32,000 nucleotides of DNA from Verrucomicrobiota bacterium (lineage in GTDB: Bacteria > Verrucomicrobiota > Verrucomicrobiia > Opitutales > LL51), in assembly GCA_021294815.2 (NCBI GenBank), contig CP095464.1, forward strand, positions 60,001 to 92,000, given 5' to 3'. The position numbers and the translations under genes were made by a program. This document shows, piece after piece, positions 10,373-32,000 of this stretch. Within the stretch, counting starts at the first letter, position 1. Every line of letters begins with the position of its first letter. The notes under the pieces are model-generated. The model did not search any database, was not told the origin of the DNA, and saw only the letters and a program-made list of their open reading frames with translations.

Positions 10373-13300
10373 TTACCGAATATTGGAGTAGATCTGCTTC
10401 CAAACATCGCCAATCGACTTCAACATTTGAGTTGCGAGTGAGGTTGTCTCATTGCAGCGTTGCATCATCCGTTGCATTTTCGTCGTAATAGTCTGACCAT
10501 CGGTCGTAATTTGGTCGACATGGATACGCATATTTTCACTCCAGAGAGAGACCTCATCGGCATTCAGGCCATTCGAGCCATCACCGTAAAGTTTGTTCAA
10601 CACGCGTTTAATCTTGGGCTCCTCTACCCAGCATTGTGTCAGCGTCTTTTTCTCGTATCCTTCGACGTTCTCGTCTTCGGTAAACAGGCCCGGCCCATCG
10701 ATATAAGATTTAATTTGCTTTACATCTTCCTTGCTAAATGTGCGATCACAGCCCAGAAGAGACGCTACCTCTGGGTCAGTCAGTCCATTGAGCGCCTCGA
10801 GGGTTTGAGATTTACTGTTTGCCCCTGCTAAATAGTTAACTGCCAAACCGGTTACAATATCGCCATATACCGAGGCCATCGCTTCGAGCTTGTACATCAA
10901 AATTAACGCGTTATAATCATAGTCTGGTTCTGTTAAATTTTCTTTATAAACACTCTTCTTTGAATAATAAAATTTCTGGTGGGCCATCAGGTCAAAAGCT
11001 TCTACCAATTTTTGATTGGTCCCTGAAGTAAAGTCTCCCGTTGAGGTATCCGAAGCTTTGCCCATCTGTTTAGCAAGATATTTATAGTGCCCTGTTCCGT
11101 TCCAATTATTGGAAATTGGTGCCCAGCTTTTAAGCTCAAAGCCATTTGTTGCGTCGCCATTGGGTTTCTTTTTATTAGAACAAATCCCTTCGATAGTACA
11201 AGGAAACGGCAAAGTCCCTCCTTTCATCTTTTGGAACAATGCTTCCGTGTAAGTTCCTAGTACGGAACGTACCTGCGCGGTATCATCTTCTTTAACAATT
11301 TTATTTCGATTATACCAATAGGCATCAATCAGCTTATTGCCACTACCAGCAGAAAAACTCTTAGTTCCATAAAGATCCGTCTGAGCTCCACTTATACCAA
11401 GTGCTGCCAACTGATAAATTCCCATCGCCACTCCACTGGCGGCTCCAGCAGCAGCCGCTCCTACGCCTATAGCAATTCCTATCCCAGCTGCGATAGCTGC
11501 CTTTGTACCCAATGCACCGAGAAAAGAAAGGGCCCCAATTCCTGCTACTCCTCCCGCAATTCCAAGAGTAGCGACGGTTATCACAGCAATTGCCGCAGCT
11601 GCAATCGCCACAGAAATTGCGGTCAAAGCACCTGCACTTTTCTTTTTTACAGACTTCGCAACGTCACCAAATTTTGCACTGGCATCGTCCGTTAATTCAT
11701 AGGCTTCTTTCAAAGAACCTAATTCTAAAAGGTCGCGGTCGGTTAGATCGCCCAACATGGTGTTTTGGCCAACATCACCACCGTTTTTAAGCTTCCCTTG
11801 AGAAACGTAGGTGAACAGGTTGGAAACATCCGCATGGTTCGACTCGAGGTAACTCATGCGCTTGTTAAAGTTCGAATTTTCGTAGGTCAACAACGAGTTG
11901 TCATCCATGGCATTCGTCGGCATTGTTATGTTGTGCTTTTTGAAGTACATGATGACTTCAGCAGGGATAACGACCTTTGCCTTATCGCCTTGTTTCGCCG
12001 CTTGCGCCTGAACTTTATTTACCTTGGCAAGTTTGGCATTCGCTTCGGCAATCTTTTCGTTATTCTCTTGGATCTCTTTCAAAAGATCAGCCAAGAGATT
12101 CTTTTGCATCGTAAACTTCTCATACAGGATTGCCATCAGACGGAACATCATCCCATAGTGCGAATAGTCGCCGTGCCAGAGCGAATCCGAGCTGATGTAG
12201 ACCGGATCGGAAATGTTATCGACCTTATCTTCGATGAAAATAGGATCACCATTCTTGCCATAACCGTAGATCACACGGTAATACGTACCGCTGCAGGATT
12301 CGAGCTGTTTTTCGGTCAGCGTCCCAGTCACTACCCAAGCACCGTTGAAGTAGGCGTATTCCTTGGGTCTTAACATCAGCAATGAGCGCTGATAAATCTC
12401 AAGTTGCTGTGAGTAGTTGAGCCAATCCTTGAGCTGTTCCAAATACTCATCAAGCGGACCTCCACGGGTGGGGATCGCCTCGATCTTGGTTTTATATTCC
12501 GCGAAATCAATTTCTGCGGCATCATATTTGTCCATAACCTCGTGAATTTCTGAGGACTGAATTTTGTAGAGGTACTGGTCCTGAGTAAATTTGCTGCTAT
12601 CGTAGGGTTCGAAATTAATTACCAAACCAATGTAGGTCTTTTTATCGGCGACATTTTTCTTCCCCAGCCAAGCCCGGAAGTTTTTGATCTTTTGTAATAA
12701 ATCGGCATCCATCTGCCCTGCGAGTTCGCCTTCATCATCGTAAGACGCAATGATCGTATCGATATCGTCGGCAAAGGCATAAAGATCCTCTAAGAGTGCC
12801 GCTTTACGGGATTTGGATACGACCCAATTGAGATGGTCGGCCAAAATTTCGTTAAACCCTTTGCCGGCAATTTTCCGGCGGCGATTATTTTTGACGACCT
12901 CGATCACGTAAACGTCATTAAGGATACCGTCATAGGTCTCGTAACGCTTGAGCTCCTCGACATAGCCGTTGAGCATCGTATCCATCTCCGTGAGGTATTC
13001 CCGGACGCTATCCGATGAAATTAAATTCTTTTCCTCCGAATTTTCGAAGTATGACTGTTTCATGAATTCATTTAGTGTAGCCTGGTAGAGTTCTGCATCG
13101 CGGGAATCGCCTTTCCAGCCCTGATATTCACAAAAGCGCGCATCACGTGCCACACCCCAGGTATCGGCGAGCGATGGGATTGGTGTATCAGAATATTGCG
13201 AACTGCCGTACTCGATAGTTTCTGCGACACGCTGAAAGTCCTTGCGGGCACCACTATTATTGAGTAACATTTCAACTTCGAGACTCACAGCATCAATTCC

Positions 13301-32000: not shown

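Follow-up and report, generated by a model that had tools for sequence, protein, structure and literature searches.

A reading frame of more than 21.6 kb in the needle-tip gene position of a type III secretion locus from Verrucomicrobiota

The 32,000-nt stretch of DNA analysed here (the window; positions 60,001 to 92,000 of the forward strand of contig CP095464.1, GenBank assembly GCA_021294815.2) comes from a Verrucomicrobiota bacterium and is dominated by one giant open reading frame (ORF) on the minus strand, followed on the same strand by genes for a T3SS (type III secretion system) chaperone and two translocators (Table 1). The frame runs from position 31999 to a stop codon at 10373-10375 and comprises 7,208 sense codons with no internal stop, remaining open at the window edge; the gene exceeds 21.6 kb and its product has a mass of about 0.8 MDa. 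At the base composition of the region a stop is expected every ~17 codons, giving a probability of ~1e-187 for 7,208 stop-free codons, and the remaining five frames contain 190-578 stops each, their longest open run being 208 codons. An artefact of repeat collapse or chimera formation is unlikely, since the window contains no N bases, no DNA tandem repeats were found in the giant gene and the encoded protein possesses only one clear internal duplication. The initial annotation of the window, made from the sequence alone, had described an uninterrupted frame of at least 21.6 kb open at the edge, had regarded it as a real gene under selection and had expected the protein to be longer than the window. 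The first of these is borne out by the figures above, and the others by the open frame taken together with collinear homologues.

Such homologues, with 40-59% identity, were identified in at least six metagenome-assembled genomes (MAGs) of Puniceicoccales (Verrucomicrobiota), and all named relatives are from Puniceicoccales MAGs. With the C-terminal 1,200 amino acids (aa) as query, HMMER recovered 46 relatives in an exhaustive search through 1.84 billion representative proteins, and a scan of GTDB species representatives, among which the source genome does not figure, gave four Puniceicoccales MAG loci. A word-indexed search with the C-terminal 1,500 aa returned two fragments, one from a JGI metagenome and one from a Puniceicoccales MAG (47-49% identity), but missed several relatives of >50% identity found by the exhaustive search; absences in the word-indexed search are therefore treated as weak negatives. 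One homologue, P0005, is complete at 7,571 aa and is encoded on a 756,918-bp ENA scaffold, of which its gene makes up 3%. Residues 1344-7208 of the window protein are collinear with residues 2682-7571 of P0005, and because of this alignment the TTG codon at 31978 is considered internal. On the long contig L004 the frame is open across all 13.5 kb fetched and is collinear with window residues 2253-7208. P0012, a more distant member (4,424 aa, cut by a contig end), is 35% identical to P0005 over its first 185 aa, which indicates a conserved N-terminal head in the family that lies outside the window. Several homologues end at contig ends, and a search of metagenome contigs for the 5' extension of the window gave no match.

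The genes around the giant place it in a T3SS locus. In both relatives with an available 5' end (L007 and L093) the giant gene is preceded on the same strand by genes for an SctY-like protein, SctV and one protein of 310 or 373 aa, in that order. The SctY-like TPR protein of L007 matches NF052415 (E 4.9e-14) and its SctV matches TIGR01399 with 896 bits against a cut-off of 692; SctV of L093 was called from a precomputed FHIPEP hit. The 310-aa and 373-aa proteins are weakly homologous to each other (E 7e-6) and have no informative Pfam match; an LcrG-like partner was not recognised at this place. Downstream, the order giant, chaperone, larger translocator and smaller translocator recurs in L001, L003, L004, L006 and L007, and the short contig L092 carries the 3' end of the giant gene, the chaperone gene and the start of the next one. 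The annotated order on an Aeromonas salmonicida plasmid is ascX-ascY-ascV-lcrR-acrG-acrV(V-tip)-acrH-aopB-aopD, and the giant occupies the canonical slot of the tip/filament protein SctA, gene for gene with the ascY to aopD order; the downstream half of this synteny lies in the window and the upstream half in L007 and L093. In Salmonella pathogenicity island 2 (SPI-2) the gene order is sseB-sscA-sseC-sseD. The roles of SseB, SscA, SseC and SseD have been described (PMC3854505). The remark in the initial annotation that this arrangement is not one known from described T3SS loci is thus incorrect, because the slot upstream of the translocator chaperone is the canonical position of SctA, as the Aeromonas order illustrates. 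When metagenomes were scanned by means of SctV, 80 loci (identity at most 57%) were recovered, none with a giant or an EspA-like relative.

The link to a T3SS chaperone/translocator cassette, already drawn in the initial annotation, holds: the gap behind the giant gene is 44 nt and the chaperone is of the LcrH/SycD type. The chaperone scores 98.3 bits against TIGR02552, just under the cut-off of 104.8, its TPR matches in Pfam are above their cut-offs and it is homologous to AcrH (E 1.5e-13). As judged from these scores it is a member of the LcrH/SycD family in the broad sense, not the equivalog. A simple scan detected neither a promoter-like site in the gap nor, from the stop codon of the giant gene to the start codon of the chaperone gene, a terminator-like site on the same strand, and the giant is probably co-transcribed with the cassette. 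A perfect 8-bp hairpin (GGAATTTT-GAGA-AAAATTCC, window 10335-10354, minus strand) before the chaperone start was rejected as a candidate signal, its folding energy being ordinary (z -0.97) and its stem not being conserved in the 90%-identical L092. Orthologues of the 835-aa translocator have 397-680 aa and lie in the same position, with two of five matching Pfam SseC (best E 1.7e-6). The 318-aa translocator has one hydrophobic segment (aa 193-213) and orthologues of 285-300 aa in all loci.

The second line of evidence comes from the C-terminus. Over the whole giant the sole family match is to Pfam EspA (PF03433) together with NCBIfam SseB (E 4e-6), at residues 6622-6701. The terminal 700 aa of the window protein reach 27.1 bits against Pfam EspA, with a gathering score of 23.4 (23.5 bits when scanned inside a 2,541-aa piece), and when the last 700 aa were scanned singly the gathering score was exceeded by all five family members (best E 2.8e-7). 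This domain had been missed in the initial annotation. The sequence 'VVIPAEVIMYF..NITMP' of the giant appears, by eye, to parallel the stretch 'AQLPDEVISYI..DITIS' of EspA.

The remainder of the terminal module consists of a hydrophobic block, a conserved domain of ~280 aa and a terminal helix. The block is the only strongly hydrophobic one in the giant. It is present in the homologues, where its length varies between ~30 and 75 aa (~30 aa in P0005), and conservation within the module is lowest here. T3SS transmembrane substrates have been described as having intermediate hydrophobicity (PMC9993115). No match to Pfam SseC (PF04888) was found in the giant, and hhalign comparison of the terminal module with the families of the neighbouring 835-aa and 318-aa translocators gave probabilities below 1%. 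The composition zones of the earlier segmentation were broadly reproduced, except that the hydrophobic block measures 75 aa and not 85; 347 residues follow it. What had been listed as a helical segment, a hydrophobic block and a C-terminal domain is better described as one SctA-like domain, the two conserved halves of which are split by an insertion. The terminal helix would then form the second half of the SctA-like coiled coil, as suggested by the matches to shorter relatives set out below and not by the profile.

AlphaFold2 (AF2) modelling of the terminal module with a 20-sequence alignment (A7) gave a mean predicted local distance difference test score (pLDDT) of 60.9 and a predicted template-modelling score of 0.53; with a two-sequence alignment the pLDDT was 33. 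In the A7 model, long helices are predicted at module residues 105-165 and 639-699 (block-mean pLDDT about 50-84) and a helical core at residues 520-610 (pLDDT 84-92). The ~280-aa domain had no significant structural match when searched with Foldseek against the PDB.

The exhaustive search of representative proteins also returned about 30 further proteins of 70-1,311 aa as stored, several of which are fragments; the two with a source name are Puniceicoccales MAG proteins. About 20 of these shorter relatives (296-1,311 aa as stored, some being fragments) match the terminal module in two stretches. One covers module residues ~100-155, the EspA-like helix ('LMAILYEKFTMQKNLLADLLKEIQENNEKI' versus 'LAIMYEKVGIQQMVLVEQLKQVEKINEAI'), and the other the helix at the very C-terminus, module residues ~640-700 ('TKMQRMMQRCNETTSLATQMLKSIGDVWKQIYSNIR' versus 'TKMSQYMQNSNACVSACTQVVKSIGDYLKTVVSNIR'), with domain E values down to ~1e-12. 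The two are ~110-130 aa apart in the shorter proteins and ~490 aa apart in the giants, where the extra segment consists of the hydrophobic block and the conserved ~280-aa domain, both absent from the shorter relatives. Weak matches to needle families were obtained for three of 20 shorter relatives (E 0.013), and their N-terminal bodies have no similarity to the giants. Loci fetched for relatives of 910 and 1,311 aa contain a parallel cassette in which the gene of the SctA-like protein stands between a ~200-aa gene and that of a TPR chaperone, with two others behind the latter, the genes of this second cassette having no informative Pfam match. Our reading is that the shorter relatives and the giants form one family of SctA-like axial proteins, specific to this lineage, whose N-terminal extensions differ widely in size, and that the giants are the extreme of that family and bear an additional insertion inside the terminal coiled coil. 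The parallel cassette was seen in the Puniceicoccales MAG loci L008 (8001-10733), L009 (3418-7353) and L010 (846-4781), where the TPR chaperone gene is followed by genes of ~300 aa and 510-579 aa.

Position and C-terminus together suggest that the giant is a substrate of a non-flagellar T3SS and the counterpart, by position and in its C-terminal sequence, of the needle-tip or filament protein SctA (LcrV/AcrV, EspA, SseB), a proposal that we consider evenly balanced; the most fitting description is that of a giant variant of the tip/filament class that carries an insertion. We infer T3SS secretion, tip anchoring and host contact. The giant would share a transcript with the chaperone gene downstream and both genes of the pore-forming translocators, and the protein would be exported unfolded, N-terminus first, via the injectisome. 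Its N-terminal body of ~6,500 aa would emerge first and fold outside as a long, fast-evolving host-contact structure made up of hypervariable helical, Tyr-rich beta-type and conserved helical parts. The last ~700 aa would provide an EspA-like coiled coil from the helix at residues ~6610-6670 and the invariant terminal helix, and this coiled coil, like SctA proteins, would dock or polymerise at the end of the needle. The Ala/Gly-rich hairpin and the ~280-aa domain, inserted between the two helices, would lie at the distal end, where the hairpin could enter the host membrane beside the two translocators.

Several observations weigh against this proposal. The EspA match spans only profile positions 34-113 of 180, at 23.5-27 bits, and the SseB matches fall far under their cut-offs (NF052422, 26.9 bits versus 155; NF011891, 24.5 versus 350). 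Because of the partial coverage and the unreached SseB equivalog cut-offs, the domain is called EspA-like and the giant is not regarded as an EspA orthologue. The shorter relatives do not match Pfam EspA. The AF2 model is of moderate quality (pLDDT 61), with low confidence in the hydrophobic block, and Foldseek comparison of the terminal-module model with the PDB gave no significant match (best E 0.31), the EspA filament 7khw_A ranking 34th (E 7.2, probability 0.23). Linkage to SctV was seen only in relatives that are ~27-52% identical over the conserved C-terminal part, and the window contains neither apparatus genes nor the N-terminus of the giant. We know of no SctA protein that has a membrane hairpin or is larger than LcrV by a factor of more than about two, nor of any precedent for T3SS secretion of a protein of >7,000 aa. 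Steric hindrance may preclude subunits of 0.8 MDa from assembling into a pentamer or helix.

Among the other explanations, that of a giant translocated effector, or of a protein inserted into the host membrane in the manner of Tir or the chlamydial Inc proteins, has the most in its favour, though we hold it to be unlikely. After export by the T3SS, such a protein would reach into or onto the host membrane by means of its hairpin. The EspA-like stretch would then be only a chaperone-binding or coiled-coil element, and the needle tip would not include the giant. A single Ala/Gly-rich block of moderate hydrophobicity accords with the description of T3SS transmembrane substrates (PMC9993115), a hypervariable N-terminal body fits host-interacting effectors, a class II chaperone adjoins the gene, and the context is symbiont-like, with a scaffold of 757 kb and with verrucomicrobial endosymbionts known from termite-gut protists (PMC8204192). 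The gene, however, lies in the slot of the tip protein and not in an effector locus, its most conserved part is the terminal helix common to the proteins of the parallel cassette, as expected of an assembly interface, and the hairpin is the least conserved part of the module, reduced to ~30 aa in P0005. The giant might otherwise be a third pore-forming translocator, or a ClyA-like alpha-pore former, acting in the host membrane alongside the 835-aa and 318-aa proteins and carrying its N-terminal body as an accessory. Hydrophobic translocators are the usual clients of class II chaperones (PMC3854505), one of which is encoded next to the giant. The predicted architecture of long helices, hydrophobic hairpin and C-terminal amphipathic helix would suit such a role, and ClyA, XaxB, Cry6Aa and MakB recur in the Foldseek list, none of them significantly. 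With all structural matches at E >0.3, no SseC match in the giant, negative profile-profile comparisons with the neighbouring translocator families and a full major/minor translocator pair already present downstream, we think it improbable.

Much less probable again is a surface adhesin or fibre that is exported by a type I or type V secretion system or by Sec and merely adjoins T3SS genes. Its size and composition, with Tyr-rich beta-type and long helical regions, do resemble those of giant adhesins, and most of the protein carries no T3SS-related signature. Set against this, the complete homologue has no Sec-type signal (the maximum Kyte-Doolittle value, KD19, in the first 60 aa of P0005 is -0.03), RTX, autotransporter or other adhesin Pfam domains were not found, the T3SS synteny is strictly conserved down to relatives of 27% identity and the EspA-like domain is present. 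An assembly artefact or a decaying pseudogene could be entertained because the window stems from a single unverified assembly and several homologues are truncated at contig ends, but the length of the open frame, the lack of repeats able to mislead an assembler and the existence of an independent complete homologue of 7,571 aa with several collinear ones effectively refute it.

Table 1. Features of the window discussed in the text (residues are numbered from the first codon of the giant frame inside the window)
Feature	Position	Strand	Remarks
Giant ORF	10373..32000	(-)	7,208 sense codons and stop; 5' end outside the window; product at least 0.79 MDa
Acidic, helix-type, hypervariable N-terminal body, aa 1-1343	27971..31999	(-)	True N-terminus outside the window
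Tyr-rich (8-13% Y) region of beta-type composition, aa 1344-3180	22460..27970	(-)	Moderately conserved, 26-29% identity to P0005
Tandem module of ~86 aa in two copies, aa 2613-2698 and 2706-2791	23627..24163	(-)	57% identical; sole strong internal repeat
Central body, mostly helical, aa 3181-4901	17297..22459	(-)	From composition and alignment
Gly/Trp-rich lineage-specific island within the central body, aa 3850-4250	19250..20452	(-)	Unaligned in P0005 and L004
Conserved C-terminal body, aa 4902-6508	12476..17296	(-)	40-44% identical across the family
SctA-like terminal module, aa 6509-7208	10376..12475	(-)	Conservation highest here, with 53-59% identity among full-length homologues
EspA/SseB-like helix region, aa 6622-6701	11897..12136	(-)	Pfam PF03433, profile positions 34-113 of 180
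Ala/Gly-rich (55%) hydrophobic block, putative membrane hairpin, aa 6787-6861	11417..11641	(-)	Mean Kyte-Doolittle 1.67
Conserved ~280-aa domain with invariant Cys, Trp and His, aa 6862-7140	10580..11416	(-)	Giant-specific
Nearly invariant terminal helix '...TKMQRMMQRCNETTSLATQMLKSIGDVWKQIYSNIR', aa 7141-7208	10376..10579	(-)	~40% identity with C-termini of shorter relatives
Gap between giant and chaperone genes, 44 nt	10329..10372	(-)	1-44 nt in homologues
Class II T3SS chaperone (LcrH/SycD/AcrH type, TPR), 190 aa	9756..10328	(-)	TIGR02552 E 2.8e-28
835-aa hydrophobic translocator (YopB/SseC/AopB position), variable coiled-coil middle	7252..9759	(-)	Hydrophobic segments aa 69-95 and 155-196
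318-aa second translocator (YopD/SseD/AopD position), ending '...IIRNSRV'	6369..7325	(-)	Matches SseC weakly (E 2.2e-3)
353-aa paralogue of the 318-aa translocator	5200..6261	(+), convergent	BLASTP E 1.4e-10

The body that precedes the terminal module is made up of segments of very different conservation. Alignment detected no similarity between residues 1-1343 and the part of P0005 N-terminal of residue 2682, and querying the word index with the N-terminal 1,400 aa gave no homologue (a weak negative), for which reasons the N-terminal body is considered hypervariable; it has no match in Pfam or the PDB. Residues 1344-3180 align with P0005 residues 2682-4538 and with L004, and Pfam and PDB searches with them were without a match. 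The composition profile gives a Tyr content of 8-13% at residues ~1400-3200 and Gly-rich islands at residues ~3800-4200 and ~5800-6000. The consensus of the duplicated module is 'ANMANYVYK.G..YY.GQ.F....KNGKL.PY...DL.S......TVY.APYLIPSNV.DIS.Y...KAI..TD.D..TGY.GV', and one weak Tyr-rich repeat was found besides this duplication. The module appears to be single-copy in P0005. Residues 3850-4250 had no homologues in the word-indexed search, again a weak negative. The Walker-A-like string GLGDYGKT in this island (residues 3973-3980; 20059-20082) was rejected as a candidate, ~0.6 such strings being expected by chance in our estimate and no NTPase family having been detected. Outside the terminal module, none of the tiles covering the other ~6,500 aa found a relative in Pfam or among PDB sequences, and PDB sequence searches with every tile and with profiles A2 and A6 gave nothing meaningful. 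The earlier statement that no catalytic motif could be recognised stands, as HExxH is absent and DxD occurs at chance frequency (36 observed versus 40 expected); no Pfam or NCBIfam match to glycosyltransferase, cysteine-protease or other toxin domains was obtained over the whole giant.

Individual family members show further peculiarities. The intact N-termini of giants (P0005 and P0012, residues 1-45) follow the pattern 'M..NPADY..GT.G.LAPD....P...NPFNP.K.L.FYE', and those of shorter relatives (P0019, P0022, P0024 and others) the pattern '..GY.ITQ....V.NPFLDL..A...FYFLEG.YDQIVLEKI'. The 'NPF...FY' spacing common to both could be a secretion or chaperone-binding signal, phmmer comparison of the two being negative. 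P0003 and P0048 (2,003 and 2,022 aa; NCBI MDR0418324.1) are annotated as complete and start at about window residue 5180; they are either a natural short version or the product of a gene split by a frameshift. At positions 1-1200 of L006 (Nc350_bin186 MAG) the homologous frame is open and encodes, unlike other members, a low-complexity segment rich in Ser, Pro and Leu, which could be an assembly frame error or a divergent segment.

The 353-aa paralogue has no strongly hydrophobic segment, and a similar convergent copy is found in L006 (14832-15773, minus strand). A 202-aa ORF on the minus strand (window 2415-3023) has no family match and ends in two copies of 'GSKSPE[AT][AT]KEKPQ'; it is situated between an nth-like gene and the gene of a conserved 316-aa protein, the L007 relative of which has a precomputed Pfam hit of the TP_0789-like kind. 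Searches of the window for tRNA and Rfam features found none.

A full-text literature search found no paper mentioning both Puniceicoccales and type III secretion. Verrucomicrobial symbionts of protists are, to our knowledge, unculturable. Non-flagellar T3SSs are known in Verrucomicrobia (PMC3459982), and genomes measure about 1 Mb in a verrucomicrobial cluster to which endosymbionts living in the nucleus or the cytoplasm of termite-gut protists belong (PMC8204192). By analogy, the 757-kb scaffold of the complete homologue would fit an endosymbiont lifestyle. Selection on the giant appears to be strong, since a gene of ~22 kb is kept intact where the main scaffold measures 757 kb and the gene takes up 3% of it.

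The size of the giant is remarkable and its function is what we infer; the association with the T3SS, which the initial annotation had proposed, is both supported and sharpened. Should the protein travel through the injectisome and remain at its tip, it would more than double the size limit known for T3SS substrates and would show that a tip protein, usually an adaptor of 20-40 kDa, can become a giant host-contact organelle. It would also be a concrete candidate for how verrucomicrobial protist symbionts attach to or invade their hosts. A more far-reaching version, which we put forward tentatively and regard as somewhat doubtful, is that the needle-tip protein has become a ~0.8-MDa 'harpoon' in which a docking coiled coil, a membrane hairpin and a fast-evolving host-binding fibre of 6,500 aa are combined, with which small-genome Verrucomicrobia living with termite-gut protists seize or enter their hosts; in that case it would surpass all other T3SS substrates in size by a wide margin and be the first SctA to contain a membrane anchor of its own. 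The family also spans sizes from about 335 to 7,571 aa with common terminal helices, a natural series that could be used to study how much mass axial T3SS proteins tolerate.

Among known systems, the closest likeness is to EspA, the filament protein of enteropathogenic and enterohaemorrhagic Escherichia coli, and to SseB of the Salmonella SPI-2 translocon platform, the same hidden Markov model (HMM; PF03433) being matched by five of five giants. As sseB precedes sscA-sseC-sseD, so the giant gene comes immediately before those of a class II chaperone and two translocators, and long helices, with a conserved C-terminal one among them, are predicted for the giant by a model of moderate confidence, as would suit a coiled coil of the EspA/SseB kind. 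EspA and SseB have ~190 aa, however, whereas the giant has at least 7,208 aa (about 40 times as many; 7,571 aa in the complete homologue), and unlike them it possesses a hairpin and a ~280-aa domain before the terminal helix and an N-terminal body of ~6,500 aa. Because the HMM match and the synteny are shared, but the small size, full profile coverage and equivalog scores are not, we class the giant as probably working like, and descending from, SctA-type proteins without being an orthologue of EspA or SseB. The V-tip proteins LcrV, AcrV and PcrV occupy the identical operon slot (SctY, SctV, small gene or genes, tip, LcrH-type chaperone, major and minor translocator), although AcrV has no detectable sequence similarity to the giant and is 361 aa long against 7,208 or more.

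Lymphostatin (LifA/Efa1) and the large chlamydial and clostridial cytotoxins exceed 3,000 aa and have been associated with T3SS-bearing pathogens. The giant differs from these in its genomic context and C-terminus, and no toxin domain was detected in it. Flagellins with enlarged variable domains and Bsp22 are self-assembling axial proteins of type III systems in which conserved helices form the core and variable parts point outward. The tip filament that Bsp22 forms in Bordetella has been described (PMC12607632). Their likeness to the giant is conceptual only, a sequence relationship having been neither tested for nor found. In flagellins the variable part is an insertion with core helices on its N- and C-terminal sides; in the giant, almost all of the additional mass is N-terminal to the EspA-like domain. 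SctA proteins in general consist of a conserved coiled coil flanked by variable domains, and the filament that EspA forms by polymerisation has a role in adhesion (PMC10333785, PMC5073101). The same logic of a conserved coiled coil with variable flanking domains, seen in LcrV, AcrV and PcrV (PMC10333785), is the one that the giant would share.

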